Shown one piece after another: positions 13,346 to 28,412 of a stretch of 32,000 bases of DNA. Origin of the DNA: Erysipelotrichaceae bacterium. Its GTDB lineage: Bacteria; Bacillota_I; Bacilli_A; Erysipelotrichales; Coprobacillaceae. The translations under genes and the position numbers were made by a program. The notes below the pieces were generated by a model, which worked only from the letters and a program-made list of their open reading frames with translations, was not told the origin of the DNA and did not search any database. Location: assembly GCA_028698185.1 (NCBI GenBank), contig JAQVDW010000005.1, positions 60,001-92,000 on the forward strand, written 5' to 3'. Numbering within the stretch: position 1 is the first letter of the stretch; every line of letters starts with the position of its first letter.

Positions 13346-14722
13346 ATGAATTATTATCTGGCAATCGATATCGGCGCATCCAGCGGCCGGCATATCCTGT
13401 GCAGCCTGCAAGATGACAAACTGGTCCTGGAAGAAGTATATCGGTTTTGCAACAATGTAGTTAAAAAAGAAGGTCATTATCATTGGGATATCGACAATCT
13501 CTTTGATCAGATCAAAACGGGTTTGAAGGAATGCAAGAAAGTGGGCAAGATCCCCAAGACAATGGCGATCGACACCTGGGCGGTTGATTATGCCCTGCTT
13601 GATAAAAGCGGCCAGGCTATCAACGGGGTTTACGCCTATCGGGATTCCCGCAACGATAAGGGGGTCAAATCAATCCAAAGCAAGATCGCTCCAGAAAAGC
13701 TTTACGGACTGACCGGACTCCAGTTCCAAAAGTTCAACACCATCTATCAGCTTTCAAGCGAAGATGACAGGGCTAAAAAGGAAGCATGTGATTTCCTGAT
13801 GGTTCCCGACTATCTCAACTATCTCCTTACCGGAGAAATGGCAAACGAGTACACCAACATGTCGACAACCCAGCTGCTCGACATCAAGACCAATAAGCTT
13901 GATGAAAGCCTGGTGGAACTGACGGGATTCAATCCGGACATCTTCAAGAAGATGGTGATGCCTGGGACCAAGCTGGGCCACTTTGCTAAGGACATTGCCG
14001 GCGAAGTTGGTTTTGACTGCGAAGTTGTCGTTCCGGCAACCCATGATACCGGCAGCGCCTATATGGCGGCTATCGAAGCCAACAGCATCATCCTTTCATC
14101 GGGAACCTGGTCGCTGCTGGGCATCGAGAGCTTGGAGCCGATTGTCAATGAGGCGGCCCGGTTGGCCAACTTCACCAATGAGGGCGGCTACAATTACCGT
14201 TACCGGTTCTTGAAAAACATCATGGGGCTCTGGATCATCCAGGAAGTAGCCCGAGAGTACCATGGCGAATACGGTTTTGGCCAGCTGGTCGAAATGGCAA
14301 GAAAAGAGCCGTTTAAAGGGATCTTCGATGTCAATGCCGACCGCTTCTTGAAGCCGGAAAACATGATTGAAGAAATCATTGCCTACTTCAAGGAACGCGA
14401 CCAGGCCTGTCCCAAAACCGCAGGCGAAATCGCCTATTGTGTCTACAATTCCCTGGCGTACTGCTACAAAGAGGCCATCGAGGAATTGGAAGCAATCACC
14501 GGCAATGAGTATGGAACAATCAATATCATCGGCGGTGGATGCCAGAATATCCTGCTCAATGAGATGATTGCGGCCACCTGCAATAAGAGGGTCGTGGCTG
14601 GTCCAATCGAGGCAACGGCATTGGGCAATATCCTTTCACAGCTAATCAGTGATGGTGTGGTCAACTCGCTTGAGCAAGGCCGTAAGCTGATCCGGGATTC
14701 ATTTGAAATTAAAACATACTAG
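13346..14722 (+). CDS. rhaB: Rhamnulokinase
   Basis: This is an FGGY-family kinase with the N-terminus MNYYLAIDIGASSGRHIL and motifs AIDTWAVDYALLD and IIGGGCQN. It is 458 aa and sits immediately upstream of rhaA and rhaD. Confidence 0.9.
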   Translation: MNYYLAIDIGASSGRHILCSLQDDKLVLEEVYRFCNNVVKKEGHYHWDIDNLFDQIKTGLKECKKVGKIPKTMAIDTWAVDYALLDKSGQAINGVYAYRDSRNDKGVKSIQSKIAPEKLYGLTGLQFQKFNTIYQLSSEDDRAKKEACDFLMVPDYLNYLLTGEMANEYTNMSTTQLLDIKTNKLDESLVELTGFNPDIFKKMVMPGTKLGHFAKDIAGEVGFDCEVVVPATHDTGSAYMAAIEANSIILSSGTWSLLGIESLEPIVNEAARLANFTNEGGYNYRYRFLKNIMGLWIIQEVAREYHGEYGFGQLVEMARKEPFKGIFDVNADRFLKPENMIEEIIAYFKERDQACPKTAGEIAYCVYNSLAYCYKEAIEELEAITGNEYGTINIIGGGCQNILLNEMIAATCNKRVVAGPIEATALGNILSQLISDGVVNSLEQGRKLIRDSFEIKTY

Positions 14723-14734
14723 AGGAGAATAGAG

Positions 14735-15994
14735 ATGGATTTTGAAAAAAGATATCAAGAAGCAAAAGAAGTGTATGCGACTTTAGGCATCGATGTCGAT
14801 GGAGCGTTGGAAAAATTGGATAATTTCCCGATTTCAATGCACTGCTGGCAAGGTGATGACGTGGTCGGATTTGACGGGGCAGGTGCTCTTAGCGGTGGAA
14901 TCCAGACAACTGGAAACTATCCCGGAAAAGCGACAACTCCCGAGCAACTGATGGGAGACATCGACAAGGTTTTTTCACTGACACCGGGAAAAAAACACCG
15001 GATCAACCTTCACGCCTGTTATGCGATTTTCCAGGAAGGTCAATGGGCTGACCGTGATCAACTTGAACCAAAACACTTCCAGGCTTGGGTTGACTATGCC
15101 AAACAAAGAGGGCTGGGACTGGATTTCAATCCGACTATCTTCTCCCATCCAAAAGCGACAGGGTTGACTCTGTCTTCACCGGATAAGGAAATCCGCGATT
15201 TCTGGATCAGACACAGCCAGGCCTGCATTAGAATCAGCGAATATTTCGCAACTGAACTGGGCACACCTTGTCTGATGAATATCTGGATTCCCGATGGTTT
15301 GAAGGATATCCCCGGTGACCGGATGGCACCACGAAGAAGATTCAAGGAATCGTTGGATGAGATCCTGTCAATCGATTATGACAAGGAAAAAGTTCTTGTA
15401 TGTCTGGAATCGAAGGTGTTTGGAATCGGGATGGAATCATACACCGTCGGATCATCGGAGTTCACCTTGAACTATGCCAAGAGTGCGGGAATCACTCCAT
15501 TGATGGACAACGGCCACTATCACCCGACCGAAGTCGTTTCCGACAAACTTTCGGCAATGCTGCTGTTCAATGACAAAGTGGCTCTTCACGTGACTCGTCC
15601 GGTACGTTGGGACAGTGACCACGTAGTCCTGTTCGATGATGAAACAAAAGAAATCGCCAAGGAAATCGTCAGAAATGATGCCATGGAACGGGTTCTTGTC
15701 GGGCTTGACTTCTTCGATGCGAGCATCAACCGCATATCGGCTTGGACTGTTGGGATGCACAACATGCAAAAGGCGATGCTCAACGCCTTGTTGACACCAC
15801 ACGCGCAGCTGGCAAAACTGCAGGATGAAGGCAACTTCACGAAAATCATGGCGATCCAGGAAGAGCTGAAGACTTATCCATTCGGTGATGTATGGAACTA
15901 CTACATGGCCAAAAACAATCTGCCATCATATCTTGACTGGTTCAAAGAGATTGAACAATATGAAACAGATGTATTATCGAAAAGGGGACAATAG
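14735..15994 (+). CDS. rhaA: L-rhamnose isomerase
   Basis: It is 419 aa with [20 protein letters not shown] and DNGHYHPTE, which are characteristic of RhaA. GAGGAG lies upstream. Confidence 0.92.
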
Positions 15995-15995
15995 A

Positions 15996-16823
15996 ATGAA
16001 TATATTGGAATTGGAATTTATCAAAGGATTCATCCGGATGTGCGACGACGGGTTCAACCAGGGCTGGCATGAACGCAACGGCGGGAACCTGACTTACCGA
16101 ATCAAGGCTGAAGAGATTGCAAAAACAGCAGGAATGCTTGACGAATCCAAGGAATGGGTGGCCATCGGTACCGAAGTGCCTAGCCTGGCTGGGGAGTACT
16201 TCCTGGTTACCGGTTCGGGAAAATATTTCCGCAACGTGGCTCTTGCTCCTGAAACAAATATCGCGATCATCAAAATCGATGATACCGGAACAAAATACCA
16301 GCTGCAATGGGGTCTTGTCGATGGCGGGAAACCGACAAGCGAGCTGCCATCACATCTGATGAACCATGCGGTCAAAAAGGCGGCATCAAACGGTAAACAT
16401 CGGGTTATCTACCATGCCCACACGACCAATGTGATCGCCCTGACTTTCGTATTGCCTTTGCGTGATGAAGTTTTCACTCGGGAACTTTGGGAAATGGCTA
16501 CGGAATGTCCGGTTGTCTTCCCAGGGGGAATCGGAATGGTTCCTTGGATGGTGCCTGGAGGCAAAGCAATCGCTGTGGCAACCTCTAAACTGATGGAAAA
16601 ATACGATGTGGCGATCTGGGCTCATCACGGGATGTTCTGCTCAGGTGAGGATTTCGATCTGACTTTTGGTCTGATGCATACGGTTGAAAAATCGGCGGAA
16701 ATCCTGGTTAAAGTACTGTCAATCCAGCCAACCAAGCTCCAAACTATCCAGGCCGATGAGTTCCGCGAATTGGCTAATGATTTCAATGTCAATTTGCCTG
16801 AAGAATTTCTGTTTGAAAAATAG
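15996..16823 (+). CDS. rhaD: Rhamnulose-1-phosphate aldolase
   Basis: This is a class II aldolase with GWHERNGGNLTYR, SELPSHLM and YHAHTTNVIALT. I place the start at ATG 15996, 1 nt after the rhaA stop. The ORF-track start at 15885 overlaps rhaA. Confidence 0.9.
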   Translation: MNILELEFIKGFIRMCDDGFNQGWHERNGGNLTYRIKAEEIAKTAGMLDESKEWVAIGTEVPSLAGEYFLVTGSGKYFRNVALAPETNIAIIKIDDTGTKYQLQWGLVDGGKPTSELPSHLMNHAVKKAASNGKHRVIYHAHTTNVIALTFVLPLRDEVFTRELWEMATECPVVFPGGIGMVPWMVPGGKAIAVATSKLMEKYDVAIWAHHGMFCSGEDFDLTFGLMHTVEKSAEILVKVLSIQPTKLQTIQADEFRELANDFNVNLPEEFLFEK

Positions 16824-16837
16824 GAGGGGGAACAAAG

Positions 16838-17995
16838 ATGTCAAAAAGATTTATATTAAACGAAACCAGCTACCATGGTAGCGGTGCAATCAAGGAAATT
16901 GTAAGCGAAGCAGTTTCCCGTCAATTCAAAAAAGCCCTTATTGTCACTGACAAGGACCTGGTGAAATTCCAGGTGGTCAAAAAAGTCACTGACCTGTTGG
17001 ACGAGGCGGGACTGGCATACGAGATTTTCGACGAAGTCATGGCCAATCCGACCATCGAACTGGTTACCAATGGAGTCGCTGCCTTCAAAAAAAGCGGGGC
17101 CGACTACATGATCGCCATCGGGGGCGGGTCACCTCAGGATGCGGCCAAGGCGATCGGAATCATCATCAACAATCCAGAATTCGCCGATGTGAGATCTTTG
17201 GAAGGAGTGGCGCCGACCAAAAACAAATGCGTTCCGATTATTGCAGTGGCAACGACAGCTGGAACCGCAGCCGAAACGACAATCAACTACGTCATCACCG
17301 ACGTCCAAAACAAGCGCAAGTTCGTCTGCGTCGATGTCCATGACATCCCGGTTGTGGCGATCGTTGATCCGGACATGATGGCTTCGATGCCAAAAGGACT
17401 TACTGCGGCTACCGGCCTTGATGCCTTGACTCATGCGATTGAAGGGTATACGACTCTAGGAGCGTGGGAACTCGCTGATACTCTCAATCTTAAAGCGATC
17501 GGACTGATTGCAAGAAGCCTGGAAGCAGCCTGCCAGAACGATCCCAAAGGTCGAGAAGACATGGCTTTGGGTCAATATATGACCGGAATGGCTTTCTCGA
17601 ACGTGGGACTGGGTGTGGTCCATGGGATGGCTCATCCACTAAGCGCATTTTACGACACGCCTCATGGCATCGCCAATGCCGTGCTGCTTCCTTACGTGAT
17701 GGAGTACAACAAGGACTTCACCGGTTCGAAATTCAGGGAAATCGCCAGAGCGATGGGTGTGAGTGGTGTCGACGCCATGAGCGAAGCACAGTACAAGCAA
17801 GCAGCTATCGATGCTGTTGTCACATTGTCTAAAAACTGCTCAATTCCTCAGACCTTGAGGGAAATCGGTGTCAAGGAAGAAGACCTGGAAGCCTTGAGCG
17901 AAGCGGCTATGGCCGATGTGTGCACCGGGGGTAATCCGCGTCCTTGCCAAAAGAGCGAAATCCTGGATCTATATAAAAAAGCATATAACGGTTGA
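16838..17995 (+). CDS. fucO: Lactaldehyde reductase (iron-containing alcohol dehydrogenase, 1,2-propanediol oxidoreductase)
   Basis: It belongs to the Fe-ADH family (GGGSPQDAAKAIG, LTHAIEGY, HGMAHPL). It is 385 aa and is the last gene of the rha operon, the usual position for the lactaldehyde-reducing step. AGGAGGGGG lies upstream. Confidence 0.85.
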   Translation: MSKRFILNETSYHGSGAIKEIVSEAVSRQFKKALIVTDKDLVKFQVVKKVTDLLDEAGLAYEIFDEVMANPTIELVTNGVAAFKKSGADYMIAIGGGSPQDAAKAIGIIINNPEFADVRSLEGVAPTKNKCVPIIAVATTAGTAAETTINYVITDVQNKRKFVCVDVHDIPVVAIVDPDMMASMPKGLTAATGLDALTHAIEGYTTLGAWELADTLNLKAIGLIARSLEAACQNDPKGREDMALGQYMTGMAFSNVGLGVVHGMAHPLSAFYDTPHGIANAVLLPYVMEYNKDFTGSKFREIARAMGVSGVDAMSEAQYKQAAIDAVVTLSKNCSIPQTLREIGVKEEDLEALSEAAMADVCTGGNPRPCQKSEILDLYKKAYNG

Positions 17996-18087
17996 TCGGC
18001 TGCCATGATTGACCTTATCCTCCAATAATATTGATCACCTGCGGCTATACCATTTTTGATTTTACAACACTACCACGAATATTATCC

Positions 18088-18112
18088 GACCGTGCCATAA
18101 GCACGGTCTTTT
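18088..18112 (+). terminator. Intrinsic terminator of the rha operon
   Basis: GACCGTGC-cataa-GCACGGTC followed by TTTT. Confidence 0.75.
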
Positions 18113-18528
18113 CGCCAAATGTAAAATTGCAGTCAATGACCTGAGTGGAAAAGGTAATTAGAAACGAAACAGAAGGAAAGATAAGATTTTTATGGAAAAA
18201 TTTCAAGTTAGATTCAATTCCGTAGAGGGATTTGGAGCAGATAATATCTGTTAAGCTAAGCACAAGGCACTCCGCTATCTAATCAATATCTGTATGCTAA
18301 TATTCTAGGCTGAGAAGATAACCAATGTCAATTACGAATTCCATGCAAAAGAGCGAGCGGAAAAGGATTGTATTATTGGAAGTTATTTTTTCCATAGTAA
18401 TGCAGTATCCAAGTATACACATAAATGTAGTAAAAACCTATATCTTGCATGTAAACATCTCAAGACCTCAGTACAATGCAATTGTGCCTGGTTGATGACA
18501 GTCGTTAAATCGTAATTTCTCCTTACAG

Positions 18529-18579
18529 AAAATAAAAGTAGGCACAAATTTGTAACTATCACTACAAACTTATGCCTAT
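18529..18579 (-). terminator. Intrinsic terminator of the jelly-roll protein gene (also motif copies A/A')
   Basis: The arms 18539-18554 and 18563-18578 pair at 14/16 positions on the plus strand. On the minus-strand RNA the two mismatches become G-U pairs, giving a continuous 16-bp stem followed by a U-rich tract (plus-strand AAAATAAAAG at 18529-18538). Confidence 0.6.
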
Positions 18580-18601
18580 AACATTTGAAATATTCGGAAT
18601 G

Positions 18602-19228
18602 CTATTTTTTTGTGATTTTCAGATCTTTGAAATATGCTTCGGTGCCGATTTCCGACCAAAGTCCGATTCCTCCGGTCGCATCGCTGCCATGGAACATGTC
18701 GTTGACAATCAGGGCCGGCTGGGATGCGTTGTTGACAAAAAGTAGGGCTTTTGAACCTTCGACTTCGATTTTCAAATCAATCCAGGCTTCAAATTCCATG
18801 TCCGCATAGGCTTCATATTTGCCCGCGGCAATCTCGCGCAATCTGTCATATTTGTATTCCGGATATGAATAGTATTGGATTGAATGGTTGCGGCGCAGCT
18901 GGTCATCGCAGCGGGCGTTCAGTGGCCGGACGTAAATCGATTCATAAGCGGTATTGGCAGAGTTGATGCGAAATGCCACTCCTAAAAAGCCACGGGCATG
19001 AGCGGGAGCGTCTTTCAACAGGCGGCTGAACACTTTGACTTCGATGATGCCATCATGGAAATCATCGCTACCATTGAATCGGGCGTAGGTCGGTTCATCG
19101 TCTTTGATGACTTCCGGGCTTTTCAATACTTTCAATACCGGGTCGCCATCGAGCGGTGTTTCTTCGACTGTGGAATTGACAGCGGTGAAATATTCAAGTG
19201 TCATTGGGATAAAATCAGTTTTGTTCAT
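18602..19228 (-). CDS. Hypothetical cytoplasmic protein, concanavalin-A-like/LamG jelly-roll (DUF1080-like) fold suspected
   Basis: The sequence has a beta-rich repeat pattern. The C-terminal signature ...LLFVNNASQPALIVNDMF.GSDATGGIGLWSEIGTEAYFKDLKI resembles the terminal strands of DUF1080/3-keto-disaccharide-hydrolase-type lectin folds. There is no signal peptide. The second ATG (19228) is preferred because GGAG is only ~2 nt from the first ATG (19234). This is a weak family call. Confidence 0.45.
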   Translation of the reverse strand: MNKTDFIPMTLEYFTAVNSTVEETPLDGDPVLKVLKSPEVIKDDEPTYARFNGSDDFHDGIIEVKVFSRLLKDAPAHARGFLGVAFRINSANTAYESIYVRPLNARCDDQLRRNHSIQYYSYPEYKYDRLREIAAGKYEAYADMEFEAWIDLKIEVEGSKALLFVNNASQPALIVNDMFHGSDATGGIGLWSEIGTEAYFKDLKITKK

Positions 19229-19295
19229 TTGCATTCTCCTTTGTTTTTCATGATCACACTATAGATTATAGCATCATAAAAAAGGATGTAAATAA

Positions 19296-19387
19296 GGCAC
19301 AATTTTGTAACTGTGGAATTTTTTGAAATAAGTCGTTTCAAATCGAGATTCAAATTAAGTTCTCTTGGTTACATATTTGTGCCTACT
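19296..19387. repeat. Inverted pair of the GGCACAAWTTTGTAAC motif (copies B and C) in the divergent promoter region
   Basis: GGCACAATTTTGTAAC lies at 19296-19311, and GTTACATATTTGTGCCTACT at 19368-19387 is its reverse complement (14/16 complementary), with 56 nt between them. The same motif occurs at 18537-18556 (AGTAGGCACAAATTTGTAAC) and inverted at 18563-18579. Confidence 0.6.
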
Positions 19388-19459
19388 TAACATTGATAAC
19401 TTCCCGGTGTATACTTTTAGCGGATTGGAAAATCCAAATCAAGAAAAAGGAGAAATATC

Positions 19460-19678
19460 ATGACAACATTCCAAAAAAAATTAAGTGCCCAAGCTTTCTT
19501 TAGAGCGGCGGCAACTGAGGCTTCATCATCTTGTGGCAGCGCCTGTGGTGCTGGCGATAAGGAAGTCAAAGAAGAAACTCCAAGTGCTTGTGGCAGTGCC
19601 TGTGGTGCTGGCGACAAGGAAGTCAAAGAAGAAACTCCAAGCGCTTGTGGCAGCGCTTGTGGTGCCGGGGACAAATAA
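19460..19678 (+). CDS. Cys-rich repeat peptide, candidate RiPP precursor (ACGX-repeat-like; three CGSACGAGD modules)
   Basis: AAGGAG lies 8 nt upstream of the ATG. The 72-aa product is a leader-like MTTFQKKLSAQAFFRAAATEASSS followed by (CGSACGAGDKEVKEETPSA)x2 and CGSACGAGDK. All 7 variable codons among the DNA repeat copies are synonymous in this frame. The gene lies directly upstream of a radical SAM/SPASM gene. Confidence 0.8.
   Translation: MTTFQKKLSAQAFFRAAATEASSSCGSACGAGDKEVKEETPSACGSACGAGDKEVKEETPSACGSACGAGDK
19532..19675 (+). repeat. 57-bp tandem repeat, 2.5 copies, coding for the peptide modules
   Basis: The copies are 19532-19588, 19589-19645 and a partial copy at 19646-19675. Copies 1 and 2 differ at 3 of 57 nt. 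Confidence 0.95.
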
Positions 19679-19703: not shown

Positions 19704-19730
19704 AGCTGACAGTCTTGTCAGCTTCTTTTA
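19704..19730 (+). terminator. Hairpin/attenuator between the precursor gene and the maturase gene
   Basis: AGCTGACA-gtct-TGTCAGCT (8-bp stem) is followed by TCTTTTA. It is 26 nt after the peptide stop and 56 nt before the rSAM ATG. Confidence 0.55.
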
Positions 19731-19785: not shown

Positions 19786-20811
19786 ATGGAATATTTCGCA
19801 TTTCAATTTCATATAACCGACCAGTGTGACCAGCGGTGCGAGCACTGCTACATCTTTGCCGAGGACAACAACATCTGCTTGAAAGAGATGGAATTGGAGG
19901 ATGTTGAAAAAGTCATCACCAATTGTGTCGACATGTGTACGAGAATGGAACGACTGCCTTATTTTTACATTACCGGAGGCGATCCGATCCTCCATCAGAA
20001 TTTCTGGGATATCGCAAAACTGCTCAAAGAGCGCAACATCCCTTTTGGCATCCTGGGCAATCCGTTCCATCTCAACGATGAAACATGTGCCCGGTTGGCC
20101 CAACATGGCTGCAAGAAATACCAGCTTTCGATCGATGGGATGGAAAAAACCCATGACTTCATCCGCAAGCCTGGTTCGTTTGCGACCACCCTTGCCAAGA
20201 TTCCGGTTCTCAAAAAAGCCGGTATCGATGTGGCCATCATGACGACAGTTTCTGGAACAAATATAGATGAGATGGAAGACATTGTCGACCTGGTTGTCGA
20301 ACACGAAGCGGACATTTTCGCTTTTGCCCGCTACTGCCCGACCAGCTTTGAAAAGGAAACCCACATTGAACCATTGGAATATCGGAATTTGCTTGACCGG
20401 TTGTGGCAAAAGTTCGAAACGTACCAGGATGGGCCCACTACCTTCAACCTCAAGGACCATCTATGGAATCTCTACCTTTATGAAAAGGGCCTGTATCAGA
20501 TTCACGAAGGATTGGAACAAGACAAAATCCATGACGGATGCAACTGCGCCAACTGTCATATGACGATTTTGCCTGACGGTGCTGTCTATGCCTGCCGCCG
20601 GATGGAAAGCAATATCGGCAATGTATTGAGCCAGAGCATCTATGATCTTTATCATGGCAAGGAAATGGAAGCATACCGCCAATATGACAAGTTTGAAAAA
20701 TGCGCCAAATGCGAGCTGCTCAACTTCTGCCGCGGGTGTCCGGCGGTGGCCTATGGCTATACCCACGACATGTACGCGCCCGACCCGCAGTGCTGGAAAG
20801 AAATCGATTAG
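19786..20811 (+). CDS. Radical SAM/SPASM-domain peptide-modifying enzyme (no N-terminal RRE domain)
   Basis: The CX3CX2C motif is at residues 14-21 (CDQRCEHC), followed by a GGDP (GGEP-like) motif. The C-terminal SPASM signature is CHMTILPDGAVYAC ... CAKCELLNFCRGC ... C. The protein is 341 aa, and AGAGGA lies 8 nt upstream. Confidence 0.9.
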   Translation: MEYFAFQFHITDQCDQRCEHCYIFAEDNNICLKEMELEDVEKVITNCVDMCTRMERLPYFYITGGDPILHQNFWDIAKLLKERNIPFGILGNPFHLNDETCARLAQHGCKKYQLSIDGMEKTHDFIRKPGSFATTLAKIPVLKKAGIDVAIMTTVSGTNIDEMEDIVDLVVEHEADIFAFARYCPTSFEKETHIEPLEYRNLLDRLWQKFETYQDGPTTFNLKDHLWNLYLYEKGLYQIHEGLEQDKIHDGCNCANCHMTILPDGAVYACRRMESNIGNVLSQSIYDLYHGKEMEAYRQYDKFEKCAKCELLNFCRGCPAVAYGYTHDMYAPDPQCWKEID

Positions 20812-20824
20812 TGAGGAGGATATC

Positions 20825-21418
20825 ATGGAACAAACCAATGAAGTAATTGAATGTTTGCAAAAGCGCCGGACCTACCGCCAGTTCCAGGACCGGTCAATTG
20901 AAAGGGAGAAACTCGACCTGATTGTCAATGCCGGTCTGGTCGCCCCCAATGCCGGAGGCCGCCAGGGCCCGGTATTCATCGTTTGCCAGGATAAGACAGT
21001 CAATACATTGTTGGGAGAAGCCAGACGGCAGGCCAGTTCCATTCCAACCGGACGTCACGTTTCTAAGGAACAGCCCAGTGTGATCGACAATCCAAACATC
21101 AAAAACAGTTTCTATGGGGCTCCGGTGGTTGTCACCATCGCCGCACCGAAAAATTTCATTTTCAGTCAAAGTGATGCGGCTATGGCAGCCCAAAATATGA
21201 TTATCGCGGCCACCTCCCTGGAAATTGCATCTTGTTTTATCGGTAGGGCGGAAACGACTTTCAATACCGGAATCGGCGTAGTTATCTGGAATGATTGGAA
21301 TATCGCAGAAAATCTCAAACCGTTCTGTCATATCCTGCTTGGCTACCCGGCGGGAATTCCGCCCAAACCTAAACAAATCAAGGAAAACCGGGTTTTCTTC
21401 GTCAACCAGGACCAATAA
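20825..21418 (+). CDS. Nitroreductase-family FMN oxidoreductase
   Basis: It has LQKRRTYRQFQDRSIEREKLDLIVNAGLVAPNAGGRQ, a typical nitroreductase N-terminus, and is 197 aa. I place the start at ATG 20825 after GAGGAGGA. The ORF-track start at 20642 overlaps the rSAM gene. Confidence 0.85.
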   Translation: MEQTNEVIECLQKRRTYRQFQDRSIEREKLDLIVNAGLVAPNAGGRQGPVFIVCQDKTVNTLLGEARRQASSIPTGRHVSKEQPSVIDNPNIKNSFYGAPVVVTIAAPKNFIFSQSDAAMAAQNMIIAATSLEIASCFIGRAETTFNTGIGVVIWNDWNIAENLKPFCHILLGYPAGIPPKPKQIKENRVFFVNQDQ

Positions 21419-22367
21419 TGCATGATATCTGGAATCCCTGGCATGGCTGTGTGAAAATCAGCGAAGGCTGTGCCAACTGCTACATGTATTTTCTCGACAA
21501 GAAAAACGGAAAAGATGGGGCAGTGATCTATCGTTCCAAAAACAACTTTGATTACCCTTTGAAAAGGACCGCCAGGGCGAATACAAAATCAAAAGTGGCG
21601 AAATAATCCGGGTCGCGATGACTTCGGACTTCTTCCTCGAACAAGCCGACCAGTGGCGTGATGAGGCCTGGAAAATCATGGAAGCCCGTAGCGATGTCAT
21701 CTTTTTCCTGTTGACCAAACGGGCCCAACGGATCAATGAGTGCCTGCCCGAAAGTTTCCAAAACGGCCGATGGGATATGGCGAATATCTTCATCAATGTC
21801 TCGTGCGAGAATCAGCGCCTGGCCGATTTGCGGATCCCCTATCTTTTGAAAGTCCCGATAAAGCACAAGGGGATCATGGCGGCGCCTTTTATCGGGCCAA
21901 TCAACATCGAAAAGTATCTGGCAACCGGAATGATTGAACAGGTGATTTGCGGTGGGGAGAATTATGGCGGGGCGAGGATGTGCGACTTTGACTGGGTCAG
22001 GGATCTGGGGGGCCAATGCCGGGACCATCAAGTCAAGTTCGCTTTCATCGAAACCGGGTCTATTTTTTGCAAGGATGGCCAGCGTTACAAGATTGCCCCA
22101 AAAGCCATGCAAAGCCGTCTGGCCTACAAATCGAAAGCCAGTCTTGAAGGCAAGAAGATAACTTTCGATCTGCATGATGTCAATAAAAATCCGATTCCCA
22201 AAGACAAGTTGCATGTGCCCCATTACCGGGAAACTTGCCGCTATTGTGGCAGCAGATCCATCTGCAATGGTTGCAGTGACTGTGGCCGATGTAATGGCGA
22301 AATAATCACTCAGGAACAAATGAAAATCCATGACCAGGAATATTTCAAAAAAGGAGCTAAAAAATGA
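21418..22367 (+). pseudogene. DUF5131 (phage Gp37/Gp68-like three-Cys) protein with a Cys-rich C-terminal tail, interrupted by a single frameshift
   Basis: Fragment 21418-21606 carries the family hallmark WNPWHGCVKISEGCANCY. Fragment 21618-22367 carries SDFFLE, FFLLTKR, GGENYGGARMCDFDWVRDLGGQC and a tail CRYCGSRSICNGCSDCGRC. The second frame is open back to 21552. Inserting one A into the A4 run at 21562-21565 joins them as ...DYPLKKDRQGEYKIKSGEIIRVAMTSDFF... The start overlaps the nitroreductase stop (TAATG). Confidence 0.75.
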
Positions 22368-23335
22368 AAGCAGTATTGTTGGAGAAACCGATCAAAGCCA
22401 ATGAAATGAAAATTGTCGAAGTGCCAAAGCTTAAAATCAGACCAGGATGGGTTTTGATCAAAGTCAAAGGTTTCGGGTTGAACCGGGCCGAATTGATTTT
22501 GCGCAATCATGAAATCGCAGCGGATTACATCCAGAAGCCGGTTGTTCCGGGTATCGAGTGTGTCGGGGAAATTCATGATGGAGGCGACAGCCGTTTCAAC
22601 AAGGGCGATAAAGTAGTCGCCTTGATGGGCGGAATGGGCCGGAGTTTTAACGGCAGCTACAGTGAGTATGCCTTGTTGCCGGCCCACCATGTGTTCAAGG
22701 TGGAAACCGCAATGGATTGGGTCGAATTGGCTGCGATTCCCGAAACGTTTTACACGGCCTACGGTTCGCTGTTCGAATCGCTCCAGCTCAAAGGAGATGA
22801 TATCCTGCTTGTCCATGGGGCGACCTCGGCGCTTGGTTTGGCAGCCATCCAGCTGGCCAAAACAGTGGGAGCTACGGTTATTGGCACCTCACGCAAGGAA
22901 GAACGCCTGGACTTGTTGCGGGAGGTTGGTTGTGACCATGCCCTTGTGGATGATGAAAACCTGGTTGCCAAGATCAAGGATATATATTCAAAGGGCATCA
23001 CGAAAATTTTGGAATTGGTCGGAGCCCATACGATCGCCAAAACAGCCCAACTGCTTAGAATTGGGGGAATTGTCTGTGTCACTGGCAAACTGGGCGGGGG
23101 CCAGACTAACGGCTTGGATCTGATCCGCCTGCTGCCAAATGGCACCTATCTTTGTGGTTTCTACAGCAATTATCCGACCCAGGCGGTGATTGATGATATC
23201 TTCAGGATCATCGAACAACACAACATCAAGCCGGTAATTGGCCGGGTCTTCGACTTTGAGCAGATCGGTGAAGCCCATGAGGTGATGGAAAACAACCAGG
23301 CCCAAGGGAAAATTGTCATCAGAATGAGTGAGTGA
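22364..23335 (+). CDS. Medium-chain (zinc-type) dehydrogenase/reductase, quinone-oxidoreductase-like
   Basis: It has a GroES-like N-terminus (MKAVLLEKP...PGWVLIKVKGFGLNRAEL...PGIECVGE) and a Rossmann motif (VHGATSALGLAAIQLAK). It is 323 aa. The start overlaps the DUF5131 stop (ATGA). Confidence 0.85.
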   Translation: MKAVLLEKPIKANEMKIVEVPKLKIRPGWVLIKVKGFGLNRAELILRNHEIAADYIQKPVVPGIECVGEIHDGGDSRFNKGDKVVALMGGMGRSFNGSYSEYALLPAHHVFKVETAMDWVELAAIPETFYTAYGSLFESLQLKGDDILLVHGATSALGLAAIQLAKTVGATVIGTSRKEERLDLLREVGCDHALVDDENLVAKIKDIYSKGITKILELVGAHTIAKTAQLLRIGGIVCVTGKLGGGQTNGLDLIRLLPNGTYLCGFYSNYPTQAVIDDIFRIIEQHNIKPVIGRVFDFEQIGEAHEVMENNQAQGKIVIRMSE

Positions 23336-23446: not shown

Positions 23447-23773
23447 CTATCCGACGAAGTCCTTGTACTGGTTGCCCCATTCTTCCATCGATTTGAACAA
23501 GGGTCTAAGACTGTTGCCCATGTCGGTGAGCGAATACTCCACTTTCGGGGGCACGACCGGGTAGGCCTTGCGGTCGACAATGCCATCGGCTTCCAATTGG
23601 CGCAGGTTGTCGGTGAGCACCTTCTGGGAAATTCCTGGCAGGCTGTTTTTCAGCTCGCCAAAACGGCAGGTCGAAACCAGAAGATTCCGGATGATCAATA
23701 ATTTCCATTTGTTGCCGATGATCTCAACCATGGTGGCCACCGGGCAAGCAGGCAGTTCGTCTTTGGTAAGCAT
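23447..23773 (-). CDS. HxlR (DUF24/MarR-like) family transcriptional regulator
   Basis: The signature is CPVATMVEIIGNKWKLLIIRNLL...RFGELKNSLPGISQKVLTDNLRQLEADGIV. It is 108 aa with an N-terminal Cys10, and GGAG lies upstream. Confidence 0.9.
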   Translation of the reverse strand: MLTKDELPACPVATMVEIIGNKWKLLIIRNLLVSTCRFGELKNSLPGISQKVLTDNLRQLEADGIVDRKAYPVVPPKVEYSLTDMGNSLRPLFKSMEEWGNQYKDFVG

Positions 23774-23894
23774 AATTTTCTCCTTAGTATCTGATATGGT
23801 GTAAGTATAAAATATAATGTATGGATTGTCAATATGGTCCCGCTGATTAACCTATCTCGTTGGCCATAGTCACTTTCAGGTAACTAGATAATAA

Positions 23895-23910
23895 AAAAGT
23901 GCGTACTTTT
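23895..23910. promoter_or_regulatory. Near-perfect 16-bp palindrome in the HxlR/sirtuin divergent intergenic region (candidate operator)
   Basis: AAAAGTGCGTACTTTT has 7 of 8 positions self-complementary. It is followed by a candidate extended -10, TGgTAAGAT, at ~23924-23932 on the plus strand. Confidence 0.3.
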
Positions 23911-24023
23911 GCGAATGAATTATTTTTGGTAAGATGAATTTGGCTCAAGGAGGGCCGATGAAAATCTAATATTATAATCAGATTCAAGATGGGGATCAAT
24001 CGGTTATGGAAGGAGTTGTAATC

Positions 24024-24944
24024 ATGGAATTTTACAGCAATTATTGTCAGAAAAAAAATAAAAGTCAAAATTATCCGAGTTTGGAACAGAGAGTCAAAAC
24101 TGTTCGGGAATTGCTTGAAGAGGCCGAGTATGTTGTCATCGGGGCCGGTTCGGGTTTGTCGTCGGCGGCCGGTCTTGACTTTGGCGGCGAGCGGTTTGAA
24201 AAATATATGGGCGAATTCGGATCAAGGTATGGCTATCATGACATGTATAGCGGTGATTTTTACAACTACCAGACGCGTGAGGAATTCTGGGCGTTCGAGG
24301 CCAAGACAATCCTGGTTAACCGCTATGAGGTGCCCGGTTTGAAACTGTATCACAAGTTGTTTGACTTGATCAAGGATAAAAACCATTTCGTGATCACAAC
24401 CAATGTCGAAAGCCAGTTTGCCAAATCGGGATTCGATTCCAATCGCATCTTCGCGACCCAGGGTGATTACAGCAAGCTTCAATGTGGTGGCGCCTGCCAC
24501 GACACCCTGTATGACAATGAAAAGTTGGTCAAAGAAATGGTTGCCAAGACAAGAGACTGTGCCATCCCGACTGAACTGATTCCCAAATGTCCGATATGCC
24601 ATAGGGAAATGAAGGTCAACTTGCGCAGCGATGGCTACTTTGTCGAAGACAAATCATGGCATGAGGCCTGCAGCCGCTATGAATCATTCATCAGCTCCAT
24701 CAATAAGGCACCGGTGGTTTATCTGGAATTCGGGGTCGGCTACAATACGCCGGGCATCATCCGCTATCCCTTCGAACGCTTCACATACGCCAACCCCAAC
24801 GCCCATCTAATCCGCTTCAACCGGGACTATCCCGAAGGAATCACTGAAAACAAAGACAAGACGATCGGTTTCACCGAGGATATGAATATGGTCCTCGCCA
24901 TGTTATTCGAACCGACAAAAGGAGAACAGGAAAATGAGCTTTAA
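24024..24944 (+). CDS. Sir2-family protein, class-M-like sirtuin (probable NAD-dependent protein ADP-ribosyltransferase, SirTM type)
   Basis: It has the NAD-binding loop VIGAGSGLSSAAGLDF and Zn-ribbon Cys pairs CGGAC and CPIC. FATQGDYSKLQC occupies the position of the canonical sirtuin xxHG motif, so Gln replaces the catalytic His. ATG 24024 is preferred because GGAAGGAG lies 8 nt upstream; the ORF-track ATG 24006 is also possible. Confidence 0.75.
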   Translation: MEFYSNYCQKKNKSQNYPSLEQRVKTVRELLEEAEYVVIGAGSGLSSAAGLDFGGERFEKYMGEFGSRYGYHDMYSGDFYNYQTREEFWAFEAKTILVNRYEVPGLKLYHKLFDLIKDKNHFVITTNVESQFAKSGFDSNRIFATQGDYSKLQCGGACHDTLYDNEKLVKEMVAKTRDCAIPTELIPKCPICHREMKVNLRSDGYFVEDKSWHEACSRYESFISSINKAPVVYLEFGVGYNTPGIIRYPFERFTYANPNAHLIRFNRDYPEGITENKDKTIGFTEDMNMVLAMLFEPTKGEQENEL

Positions 24945-25473
24945 AGAAATAGGAATTGAAGAATTGGAAATAAACCCGATGACAATGATCGGAGGCGACT
25001 GGTGGTTGATCAGTGCTGGTAATGAACAAAATGGTTACAATGCGATGACGGCCTCATGGGGGCATCTAGGCGCAATCTGGGAAAGACCTGAAGGCAAAGC
25101 CCACATGGGATTGCCGACTGCCTGTGTCTATTTGCGCCCGCAACGCTATACCAAGGAATATCTTGAGCGCGAGGACATTTTCACACTGAGTGTGTTCGAA
25201 AGCAATCACAAAAGGGCCCTAGGCTACCTTGGCAGCCACAGCGGCCGCAATGAAGATAAAATCGCCAATGCCAACCTGACACCAGTATTCGATCAGGGCA
25301 CAATCTACTATGAACAGGCTAAAATGGTCTTTGTCTGCAAGAAGATCTACAATGCCCCATTGCAAGAAAGCGGCTTTGTCGATACCAGCCTGGTTGAAAA
25401 CAACTACCCGAAAAAAGATTTCCACGAAATGTATATCGGAGAAATTGTCAAAGTCCTGGTCAAGAATGACTGA
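24934..25473 (+). CDS. Flavin reductase-like (FMN-binding split-barrel) protein
   Basis: It is 179 aa, and ...NPMTMIGGDWWLISAGNEQNGYNAMTASWG... is typical of the flavin-reductase-like domain family. It overlaps the sirtuin gene end by 11 nt. Confidence 0.75.
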   Translation: MSFKEIGIEELEINPMTMIGGDWWLISAGNEQNGYNAMTASWGHLGAIWERPEGKAHMGLPTACVYLRPQRYTKEYLEREDIFTLSVFESNHKRALGYLGSHSGRNEDKIANANLTPVFDQGTIYYEQAKMVFVCKKIYNAPLQESGFVDTSLVENNYPKKDFHEMYIGEIVKVLVKND

Positions 25474-26948: not shown

Positions 26949-27791
26949 ATGGAAAACCTGACCCAAAACCAACGACTGGATTGTCTGATTGACTGGCTCA
27001 AAGGGGAGTCTTATCATTACCGCAATTTGAAAGTCGATGGCGATCATGAAAAAAAGAAAGCAACCCTCAGGGCGTTGATGAATATCCGGATGCCCCGGAA
27101 TGTCCCGATGTCAATCATGACCATCCAGGATGAATATTTGCAACAAGAACGCCAAGCCACAGGTGTCGTCGGCCCTGATGCCATTCCTTCAATCGAAGAA
27201 ACATTAGGATCTGAATTGCCGTTTGGTTCCAAACTGGCCTTATGGCAGGGGGACATCACCACCCTGGAAGTCGATGCGATCGTCAATGCCGCAAACAACC
27301 AGCTGCTGGGCTGTTTCATTCCCAATCATCACTGCATCGACAACGCGATCCATTCCGGTGCGGGAATGGCCTTGCGGCTGGAGTGCGCCAATTACATGAA
27401 CAGCAGGCAAAAAATCCACGGCGACCAATATCTGGAGCCAACCGGTCAGGCAATGATCACCAATGGCTACAATCTCGCAGCTTCGTATGTGATTCATACA
27501 GTCGGCCCGATTGTCACCGGAAAGCTCGAAAATAGCCACCGCATCGCATTGAAAAGCTGTTATCACAACGTGCTGGAACGGGCCCGGGAAAATGGGCTAC
27601 GGACCTTGGCGTTGTGTTGCATCTCGACCGGGGAATACCATTTCCCCAATCTCGAAGCAGCCCATATCGCTGTGGCAACTGTCCGCGATTACCTGGAAAA
27701 TCACGGTGACTGTTTCGATTTGATCATCTTCAACGTGTTCAAGGACCAGGATTATGAATGTTACAAGAATGTACTGTCGTCAATGAAATAG
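26949..27791 (+). CDS. Macrodomain protein, protein-ADP-ribose hydrolase (sirtuin-linked type with N-terminal extension)
   Basis: The macro core is LALWQGDITTLEVDAIVNAANNQLLGCFIPNHHCIDNAIHSGAG ... YVIHTVGP ... ISTGEY. It is preceded by a ~90-aa extension. GAAGGAG lies upstream. Confidence 0.85.
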   Translation: MENLTQNQRLDCLIDWLKGESYHYRNLKVDGDHEKKKATLRALMNIRMPRNVPMSIMTIQDEYLQQERQATGVVGPDAIPSIEETLGSELPFGSKLALWQGDITTLEVDAIVNAANNQLLGCFIPNHHCIDNAIHSGAGMALRLECANYMNSRQKIHGDQYLEPTGQAMITNGYNLAASYVIHTVGPIVTGKLENSHRIALKSCYHNVLERARENGLRTLALCCISTGEYHFPNLEAAHIAVATVRDYLENHGDCFDLIIFNVFKDQDYECYKNVLSSMK

Positions 27792-27803: not shown

Positions 27804-28412
27804 ATGGATTTCATCGATATTTCCAAAAAGCGCCAGACCGTGCGCAAGTTTTCCAATGAACCGGTCGAACCAGAAAAACTGGAAAAAATATTGGAGGCGG
27901 GAAGGTGGGCACCTACGGCTGTCAATGGCCAACCCCAGCGGATTCTTGTCCTGGACAATCCCGAGAACCTCATGAAGGTGAAGCAGTTCTGCAGTTTTGG
28001 CTATGACCAGAAGTATGTCGATCTGGCCCATGAGTGCGACGATTCGAAAAACGGGAAAATCAACTTGTACTATGGAGCCCCGCTGGTTCTGTTTGTCTGC
28101 TATGACCAGGATGCCTGCTGGAGACATCCCCAGACCGGAGAGAGTTCCGGAGCGACCGATGCGACAATCGTCGCCACCCATCTGATGCTTGAGGCGGCCA
28201 GTTTGAATCTTGGCAGCGTGTGGATCAGCTATTTTGATGAAACCAAAGCCCGGGAATTGTTGAACATTCCCAAGCAGTGGCAACCCGTATGCATGCTGTA
28301 TATCGGCTATCCGGCCGCGGATTTTGTGCCCAACACCCATCTAGGAGGCAAACGCCTGCCAATCGGGAAAACCTGTTTTTACAACGGGGTTCCCGGGCAA
28401 CACAATTCGTGA
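27804..28412 (+). CDS. Nitroreductase-family FMN oxidoreductase (second copy in the window)
   Basis: It has KKRQTVRKFSNEPVEPEKLEKILEAGRWAPTAVNGQPQRILVL and is 202 aa. AGGAGG lies upstream, 12 nt after the macro gene stop. Confidence 0.85.
   Translation: MDFIDISKKRQTVRKFSNEPVEPEKLEKILEAGRWAPTAVNGQPQRILVLDNPENLMKVKQFCSFGYDQKYVDLAHECDDSKNGKINLYYGAPLVLFVCYDQDACWRHPQTGESSGATDATIVATHLMLEAASLNLGSVWISYFDETKARELLNIPKQWQPVCMLYIGYPAADFVPNTHLGGKRLPIGKTCFYNGVPGQHNS

Follow-up and report, generated by a model that had tools for sequence, protein, structure and literature searches.

An ACGX-repeat peptide and its radical SAM/SPASM enzyme in a four-part cassette with an HxlR-family regulator and an MDR-family reductase

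A 32,000-nt stretch of an Erysipelotrichaceae bacterium contig (JAQVDW010000005.1, positions 60,001–92,000; hereafter the window) carries a gene for a 72-aa cysteine-rich repeat peptide, followed by a gene for a radical SAM/SPASM enzyme, its probable modifier. Both products match curated models of the ACGX-repeat system. Comparison of gene neighbourhoods shows a conserved cassette of four parts, shared by anaerobes from several phyla: an HxlR-family regulator, the peptide, the enzyme and an MDR-family reductase. The finding of the repeat peptide as such is not new: the family was defined by curators years ago and is named by annotation pipelines. It nevertheless has no described chemistry or function, despite enzyme relatives in at least 577 reference species genomes (scan with one genome per species), many of them from gut Bacteroidales and Clostridia. 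What we add is the cassette of predicted thiol-sensing regulator, peptide, radical SAM enzyme and dedicated reductase, with no export genes among its conserved neighbours and with a conserved operator-like box. We tentatively propose that this ACGX pair, in its HxlR/MDR cassette, performs thiooxazole-type chemistry in a cytoplasmic metal/redox or stress role, an account to which we give somewhat less than even weight.

A precursor peptide with three identical modules

The peptide gene encodes a leader and three cysteine modules separated by two spacers. Its translation reads MTTFQKKLSAQAFFRAAATEASSS, then CGSACGAGDK-EVKEETPSA twice and a last CGSACGAGDK, laid out as follows:

19446–19452 (+): Shine–Dalgarno sequence AAAGGAG, 7 nt 5′ of the ATG, read directly
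19460–19678 (+): ACGX-repeat precursor peptide gene, 72 aa plus stop codon, TIGR04341 match
19460–19531 (+): leader, residues 1–24, with the motif K-L-S-A-Q-A-F common to the family
19532–19561 (+): module 1, CGSACGAGDK, two x-C-G units
19562–19588 (+): spacer 1, EVKEETPSA
19589–19618 (+): module 2, CGSACGAGDK
19619–19645 (+): spacer 2, EVKEETPSA
19646–19675 (+): module 3, CGSACGAGDK, with the final Lys typical of the family

The three modules hold six x-C-G-(S/A) units: SCGS, ACGA, ACGS, ACGA, ACGS and ACGA. At the DNA level, Tandem Repeats Finder places 2.5 copies of a 57-bp period at 19530–19674 (92% matches, score 248). The open reading frame (ORF), Shine–Dalgarno sequence and repeat that an earlier note had described from the letters of this DNA are all confirmed. 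The leader has no hydrophobic signal-peptide core (maximum 10-residue hydropathy 0.78; family median 0.45), and the peptide gene contains no selenocysteine codon. No second Cys-Gly repeat ORF was found within the window, and the exact 72-aa sequence had no match in the protein collection searched.

The sense frame is constrained at the protein level

Codon-by-codon alignment of the repeat copies gave seven variable columns, exactly those listed in the earlier note, and all seven changes fall at third positions and are silent in the sense frame. Only around 22% of the possible single substitutions in the 57-bp unit are silent (33% of transitions), so seven silent changes out of seven are unlikely to have arisen by chance. 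The pattern had been taken to exclude the antisense and +2-frame repeat ORFs. The repeat products of the sense +1 and +2 frames do differ between copies, but on the opposite strand the repeats of an 85-aa ORF (19417–19674, −) are likewise identical between copies (ALGVSSLTSLSPAPQALP). The antisense frame has the same wobble positions as the sense frame, and the silent-change test within the window therefore cannot exclude it.

Comparison with orthologues can. The antisense frame is stop-free in only 6 of 72 orthologous genes and the sense product matches a curated model, which rules out the antisense ORF as the product. The window peptide and its Neobacillus and Vallitaleaceae orthologues have the N-terminus MxxFxKKxSAQAF in common, and between the window and Vallitaleaceae genes synonymous sites are near saturation (proportion of synonymous differences, pS, 0.87) with all three modules identical. 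We therefore assign next to no probability to the idea that the locus is not a gene, whether as a non-coding tandem DNA repeat or with the antisense ORF as the real product: that ORF is open in the window and its repeats are unchanged between copies, but the distribution of stop codons among orthologues, the match to TIGR04341, the identity of modules at synonymous saturation, and a sense ORF with a Shine–Dalgarno sequence and a conserved N-terminus all speak against it.

Module-to-module comparison within genes (53 genes) gave a pS of 0.60 and a proportion of non-synonymous differences (pN) of 0.024, a ratio of 0.04, which indicates that the repeats are old and have been kept constant at the protein level; for orthologue pairs the median pN/pS is 0.28. 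These comparisons uphold the earlier proposal of purifying selection and show, at the level of sequence, a precursor-type peptide under such selection, with strong constraint on the (A/S)-C-G units. The repeat copies in the window are unusually alike in DNA, which points to a recent duplication or gene conversion.

A typical member of the ACGX family

Against TIGR04341 (ACGX-repeat peptide) the window peptide scores 49.7 bits, above the cutoff of 28 (E = 4.4e-13), and orthologous peptides carry the Pfam label PF27855 Target_ACGX. The locus combines A-C-G-X repeats behind an N-terminal leader with an adjacent rSAM_ACGX enzyme gene. The earlier note gave the numbers of the two models, TIGR04341 and TIGR04340, correctly, and a profile check placed both above cutoff; its statement that ACGX chemistry is uncharacterised also agrees with the literature, as no paper describing it was found in 8 million full texts, where ACGX turned up only as unrelated abbreviations or as a GenBank prefix.

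We extracted 72 peptides as the small ORF upstream of an orthologous enzyme, the remaining loci being short of upstream sequence or missed by the leader-motif pattern. All 72 carry the leader motif (K/R)(R/H/L)(S/T)AQ(S/A/G)(Y/F), a pattern that was itself used for extraction, and all have 2–5 cysteine modules between A/P/G/K/E/D-rich spacers: two modules in 39 peptides, three in 16, four in 12 and five in 5. Exactly three CGxxCG modules occur in 11 peptides, including that of the window. Spacers span 9–17 residues from Cys to Cys, and consecutive two-Cys modules mostly lie 18–20 residues apart, which compares with the 19-residue repeat of the window peptide; the Vallitaleaceae peptide (MSFFKKRMSAQAFMNAADNGGTSSACGSACGAGDKESEEKPSACGSACGAGDKEPEEKPSACGSACGAGDK) is nearly superimposable on it. 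The arrangement of two ACGX units with a charged spacer, which had been singled out as the distinctive feature of this locus, is hence the family norm, K/E/P/D-rich spacers being found in 72 of 72 peptides.

The cysteine contexts are uniform. Gly follows the Cys in 97% of cases, and the preceding residue is Ala (79%) or Ser (15%; 94% together). Among 199 modules, the position +4 from the last Cys is occupied by Asp 121 times and by Glu 51 times (acidic in 86%), and holds another residue or none in 27; a rumen Bacteroidales sub-clade uses ACGSACGAAKPEE and its peptides end in ACGAK, without an acidic +4 residue. Of the 72 peptides, 67 end in Lys. Beyond these features, the window locus shares with the ACGX system (TIGR04341/PF27855 and TIGR04340) the (A/S)-C-G-(S/A) units, charged spacers and peptide-then-enzyme order. 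By its sequence, it is a typical member of a catalogued and already annotated family, not a new architecture. A four-module peptide from a Neobacillus metagenome-assembled genome (locus L002, 3578–3847) has a degenerate last module, and its first Ala-Cys is replaced by Thr-Val (PSTVGTSCGAGDK).

SbtM is the closest characterised relative of the enzyme

The second gene of the pair follows closely on the peptide gene:

19786–20811 (+): radical SAM/SPASM maturase of the ACGX system, 341 aa, TIGR04340, starting 108 nt downstream of the peptide gene

The enzyme matches TIGR04340 at 575.8 bits (cutoff 400) over profile positions 1–341 of 341 and contains the Pfam domains Radical_SAM (PF04055, 75.7 bits) and SPASM (PF13186, 37.9 bits). 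An identical protein is already named in GenBank as a radical SAM/SPASM protein of the ACGX system. The protein has 13 residues ahead of its CxxxCxxC motif (C14/C18/C21), and because the motif begins at residue 14 the enzyme has no N-terminal RRE domain. Further cysteines are invariant in the family alignment (C252, C254, C270, C306, C309, C315, C318 and C336). Among the matches listed, relatives are mostly from Bacteroidales, with others from Clostridia, Negativicutes, Treponema and one Methanosarcina metagenome-assembled genome.

The second-best model, and the best match to a characterised enzyme, is SbtM (TIGR04082), with 183.6 bits across the whole radical SAM and SPASM region. Other models score lower: AhbD (123 bits), MftC (TIGR03962, 77.4 bits), anSME (69.7 bits) and PapB (NF047865, 69.5 bits), with the cutoffs of MftC (265) and PapB (340) not reached. 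Among the best 150 proteins of a deep representative search, ten sampled proteins were all ACGX-like with SbtM as second-best model for every one, and no true SbtM was reached within those 150. Structure comparison added little: a PDB sequence search returned distant radical SAM cores only (SkfB, E = 1.5e-11), the AlphaFold model is confident in the radical SAM core alone (mean pLDDT 60.7, SPASM part below 50), and its Foldseek neighbours (SkfB, SuiB, anSME and PqqE) are generic and uninformative on chemistry.

Two natural fusion proteins, P0273 (737 aa) and P0275 (811 aa), join an N-terminal PapB-like radical SAM/SPASM domain to a C-terminal ACGX-like one, a weak hint that the two domains may do different chemistry. 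Four other ACGX-like enzymes (P0244, P0247, P0251 and P0255) have N-terminal extensions of around 270–300 aa.

A conserved cassette with a regulator and a reductase

To describe the genomic context, we clustered all ORFs of 76 loci and counted neighbours. An HxlR-family regulator and an MDR-family dehydrogenase, identified from gene calls with Pfam labels, are the same neighbours in Erysipelotrichaceae, Sporomusa and Parabacteroides. In the window, the order is peptide, radical SAM enzyme, nitroreductase, a frameshifted DUF5131 gene and the MDR gene, then hxlR on the opposite strand:

20825–21418 (+): nitroreductase-family protein, 197 aa, accessory; PF00881, 74.5 bits; beside the cassette in 24 of 76 loci
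21418–22367 (+): DUF5131 gene in 62-aa and 249-aa pieces, outside the conserved core; 1-nt deletion in an A-run near 21561
22364–23335 (+): MDR-family NAD(P)H oxidoreductase (annotated zinc-binding dehydrogenase); Pfam ADH_N, ADH_zinc_N and ADH_zinc_N_2
23447–23773 (−): HxlR-family regulator with Cys10-Pro11; PF01638, 117.6 bits

Upstream sequence of at least 1.5 kb is available for 66 loci; 51 of these carry an HxlR gene, usually divergent and 130–270 nt upstream of the peptide gene. The N-terminal Cys-Pro of the regulator is kept in 52 of 52 HxlR partners, and this cysteine stands at the position of the redox-sensing Cys in YodB, HypR and QorR. Where downstream sequence reaches at least 1.2 kb (64 loci), the MDR gene was found in 50, and in 46 it starts no more than 300 nt from the stop codon of the radical SAM gene. 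Searching outwards from the MDR protein gave the converse result: many of its top 120 homologues share contigs with ACGX enzymes, and all three sampled homologues (from Konateibacter, Clostridiaceae and Prolixibacteraceae) directly follow a Target_ACGX peptide and radical SAM gene, with an HxlR gene nearby. Partner identities also track the identity of the radical SAM enzyme (HxlR, r = 0.87; MDR protein, r = 0.68). On this genomic evidence, the MDR protein is a dedicated component of the cassette. It lacks the catalytic-zinc His (GIECVG), as do quinone- and ene-reductase-type MDR proteins.

Frequent extra neighbours include genes for nitroreductase, SIR2-like, Macro, tautomerase and ABM proteins, as well as flavin reductases and OYE-type reductases. 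Genes for an exporter (ABC or MFS), a peptidase or immunity are missing from the conserved neighbours in the 76 loci, the gene calls around the Erysipelotrichaceae, Sporomusa and Parabacteroides enzymes include no transporter or peptidase, and neither an MNIO (multinuclear iron oxidase, DUF692) nor a DUF2063 partner appears among the called neighbours or conserved clusters.

The window departs from the usual ACGX locus in two respects, neither of them essential: a nitroreductase gene and a broken DUF5131 gene lie between the radical SAM and MDR genes, and the HxlR gene is downstream instead of divergently upstream. The DUF5131 gene is intact (316 aa) in a near-identical contig (L082), and its split in the window could mean that it is a pseudogene, that strains vary or that a homopolymer was misassembled. 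The DUF5131 protein begins with a Cys-rich CVKISEGCANC motif.

The layout is familiar in part. HxlR-family regulators with an MDR oxidoreductase and nitroreductases are the layout of thiol-based electrophile-stress regulons. The ACGX cassette resembles the YodB/QorR arrangement, in which an HxlR-family regulator stands beside a divergent quinone oxidoreductase, in its conserved N-terminal Cys, its MDR oxidoreductase and its nearby nitroreductases, but differs in that the peptide and radical SAM genes sit between regulator and oxidoreductase. No paper uniting HxlR with a radical SAM/SPASM enzyme was found in 8 million full texts.

A repeated operator-like box and other expression signals

Several candidate regulatory elements surround the cassette genes:

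18536–18556 (−): further copy of the operator-like box, downstream of a 209-aa gene
19286–19311 (−): box copy 2 (GTTACAAAATTGTGCCTT...), inverted partner of copy 1, overlapping a divergent promoter-like site
19368–19393 (+): box copy 1, with core GTGCCTACTT at 19379–19388, overlapping the −35 element of the peptide promoter
19387–19415 (+): sigma-70-like promoter TTAACA-17-TATACT of the peptide gene, a consensus match only (10/12)
19704–19729 (+): hairpin with 8-bp stem and 4-nt loop, then TCTTTT, between peptide and enzyme genes (terminator-like scan, centroid fold)
23879–23908 (+): full bipartite box GGTAAC-N14-GTGCGTACTT, between hxlR and a SIR2-like gene

Box copies 1 and 2 form a 26-nt inverted repeat with 81% complementarity. 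An 18-nt motif, GTTACAWAWTTGTGCCTW, has three exact copies in the window against 0.19 expected, and the core GTGCSTACTT has three against 0.03 expected. The core is often preceded by GGTWAC, and this bipartite form also occurs upstream of the peptide genes of three other loci (L015, L030 and L041). Across the family, the 300-nt regions upstream of ACGX peptide genes are enriched around 32-fold in the core GTGC[CG]TA[CT]TT. In six loci of different phyla (Neobacillus, Vallitaleaceae, Clostridiaceae, Sporomusa, Treponema and another member of the Bacillota), the core lies at −58 to −106. We infer from these positions that the box is a putative operator of the cassette's own regulator.

As a suggestion only, the hairpin at 19704–19729 may act as a leaky terminator or an attenuator and in this way set how much peptide is made relative to enzyme; the fold of the whole intergenic region is not unusual (z = −0.4), and an Rfam scan of the window found no RNA family.

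Candidate chemistry and function

With no more than moderate confidence, and arguing from sequence relationships, we favour Cys-derived heterocycles that would form metal- or redox-active sites over Cys–Asp thioethers. The chemistry that we rank as likeliest, though short of probable, is a four-electron oxidation of each Cys to a 5-thiooxazole by analogy with SbtM. Two independent lines lead away from PapB-type thioethers to this reading: the position of SbtM as closest characterised enzyme, and a peptide architecture like that of the thiooxazole metallophore precursors modified by MNIOs. Cys or selenocysteine is converted by SbtM to a thio(seleno)oxazole with loss of four hydrogens (PMC11002830); SbtM/SbtMa act on Cys in a ribosomal peptide by anaerobic radical chemistry, as the ACGX enzyme would. 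Unlike the SbtM substrate, the ACGX peptide is multi-site and repetitive, and it has no selenocysteine codon. On the peptide side, the oxazolins (HvfA/HvfBC) and bufferins (BufA/BufBC) derive from precursors with variable numbers of short repeats holding two Cys-Gly motifs each. HvfA-family repeats are 17 residues long with two EGKCG motifs, and the modified Cys bind copper: the six Cys in the three AEGKCGEGKCG motifs of HvfA become Cu-binding 5-thiooxazoles, and bufferins bind copper through two thiooxazoles.

Oxazolin and bufferin biosynthesis relies on a multinuclear iron oxidase that depends on oxygen and has a DUF2063/RRE partner, whereas the ACGX enzyme is a radical SAM protein; since MNIOs cannot work without oxygen and every ACGX host is an anaerobe, a radical SAM route to thiooxazole would make sense. 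Oxazolin and bufferin precursors have a Sec signal peptide and a periplasmic site of action, whereas the ACGX peptide has no signal peptide and is encoded in anaerobes beside a reductase and an HxlR regulator. A search of 8 million full texts for radical SAM enzymes together with thiooxazole yielded nothing but MNIO papers that cite SbtM.

In mechanistic terms, thiol-reactive or metal stress, sensed by the HxlR-type repressor, would probably trigger production of the peptide. Lacking an RRE domain of its own, the enzyme may receive the peptide by direct docking of the KLSAQAF leader and would then act on each of the six Cys residues, each two-Cys module becoming one soft-metal or redox-active site. 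The product would probably remain in the cytoplasm, where the MDR reductase would act on, or recycle, the modified peptide. The lack of export machinery in the cassette favours such an intracellular stress or redox role over a secreted antibiotic. Spelled out in full, an HxlR-controlled cytoplasmic peptide bearing radical SAM-made thiooxazoles, with a dedicated NAD(P)H-dependent MDR partner, would serve gut and sediment anaerobes as a metal/electrophile-stress buffer or as a peptide-borne redox cofactor, an O2-independent counterpart of the bufferins and oxazolins; taken with all its parts, this scenario is doubtful. If the thiooxazole reading is true, anaerobes would own an oxygen-free route to copper-binding heterocycles that aerobes make with iron oxidases.

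Several observations weigh against the thiooxazole reading. The window enzyme does not reach the SbtM cutoff of 350 and lacks the N-terminal region of SbtM of around 197 residues, its match covering profile positions 198–515 only. No experimental data on any ACGX family member were found in 8 million full texts. The dedicated MDR reductase is left unexplained, since forming a thiooxazole oxidises the substrate overall and calls for no reductase. An acidic residue at +4, as found in 86% of modules, suits a Cys-x3-Asp/Glu thioether and is not required by a thiooxazole model. Copper-handling genes are absent from the conserved neighbours in the 76 loci, and the known HxlR-family sensors YodB, HypR and QorR answer electrophiles and oxidants, not metals.

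Alternative explanations

The +4 residue is the main argument for chemistry of the ranthipeptide type, in which the radical SAM enzyme would make a bond from the second Cys thiol in every module to the Asp or Glu side chain at +4, in the manner of PapB in freyrasin, giving three small thioether macrocycles. The Cys-x3-Cys-x3-Asp spacing is present in all three window modules and the +4 residue is acidic in 172 of 199 family modules, and the freyrasin precursor PapA has repeated Cys-x3-Asp/Glu motifs, its maturase PapB likewise being a radical SAM/SPASM enzyme. The analogy to PapB drawn in the earlier note thus survives as a rival on the peptide side, but is weak on the enzyme side, where the PapB model scores far below both its cutoff and SbtM. 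The ACGX enzyme moreover lacks an RRE domain, unlike PapB; its substrate has two Cys per module with Gly after each; and the acidic residue is not universal, being missing from 27 modules and from a whole rumen sub-clade. Cross-linking of the second Cys would leave the first Cys and the near-invariant following Gly unexplained, and the fusions of PapB-like to ACGX-like domains suggest non-redundant chemistries. We consider ranthipeptide-type chemistry unlikely. The dedicated reductase can instead be placed at the centre, with the radical SAM enzyme making a redox group on the peptide, as a cofactor or electron carrier, that the MDR dehydrogenase uses or recycles. Mycofactocin, a cofactor made by a radical SAM/SPASM enzyme and tied to dehydrogenase partners, is the precedent (PMC10114670), and MftA/MftC resemble the ACGX pair as a small peptide and radical SAM/SPASM enzyme linked genomically to nicotinamide-dependent dehydrogenases with no exporter. 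The specific MDR subfamily in 50 of 64 loci, the finding of all three sampled homologues inside ACGX cassettes, and the flavin reductases, nitroreductases and OYE-type reductases amid which the cassette often lies would all fit. However, there is no MftE-like peptidase or MftD in the cassette and no conserved peptidase in the 76 loci to excise a small cofactor, the MftC model stays well below its cutoff, and repeated identical Cys modules, in place of the single C-terminal Val-Tyr of mycofactocin, are unusual in a cofactor precursor. We regard a mycofactocin-like cofactor as improbable.

LanJA reductases convert dehydroalanine into D-alanine. A two-step tailoring pathway of this kind, in which the radical SAM enzyme turns Cys into dehydroalanine or a thioaldehyde through anSME-like C-beta hydrogen abstraction and the MDR protein reduces the product, would also give the reductase a task: LanJA belongs to a zinc- and NADPH-dependent dehydrogenase family and acts on dehydro-residues of peptides that are made on ribosomes and modified after translation (RiPPs; PMC11519912), the MDR gene lies directly behind the radical SAM gene in 46 loci, and anSME is among the Foldseek structural neighbours. 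Stripping sulfur from every strictly conserved Cys nevertheless seems wasteful, the anSME model scores just 69.7 bits and the MDR protein lacks the catalytic-zinc His, making this pathway decidedly improbable. The earlier note had also suggested that three short peptides might be released from one precursor, and cleavage after each GDK would indeed yield several identical short modified peptides, as in a secreted multi-core antimicrobial RiPP; the internal GDK/E junction repeats the C-terminal GDK, and 67 of 72 peptides end in Lys. The genomic context does not support such release, which we judge highly improbable: no conserved peptidase, ABC or MFS exporter or immunity gene accompanies the 76 loci, the leader has no signal peptide, and the cassette is accompanied by reductases and probably under the control of a regulator of the stress type.

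Surrounding genes

Downstream of hxlR, the window contains a SIR2-like gene (weak match, 24006–24944), a flavin reductase-like gene (24934–25473), a Macro-domain gene (26949–27791) and a second nitroreductase gene (27804–28412). SIR2-like and Macro genes follow the ACGX cassette in Sporomusa (L084) too and cluster with it in 8–9 of 76 loci; judged by this co-occurrence, they may form a linked ADP-ribose-related module. A single Prolixibacteraceae locus (L090, 7300–9597) has a bifunctional glutamate-cysteine ligase/ATP-grasp gene (GshF-like, glutathione synthesis) beside its cassette, which fits a thiol-stress theme.

Upstream, a gene for a 209-aa protein (18602–19234, −) is divergent from the peptide gene; the protein has no Pfam or NCBIfam match and has homologues near ACGX cassettes in four loci. 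The AT-rich region of around 600 bp next to it (17996–18601) holds one box copy and no convincing gene. A 72-aa minus-strand gene call in this region (18045–18263) looks spurious and is not Cys-rich. Directly upstream again lies a complete L-rhamnose catabolic operon (13346–17995), with genes for rhamnulokinase, rhamnose isomerase, rhamnulose-1-phosphate aldolase and lactaldehyde reductase, which is unrelated to the cassette.

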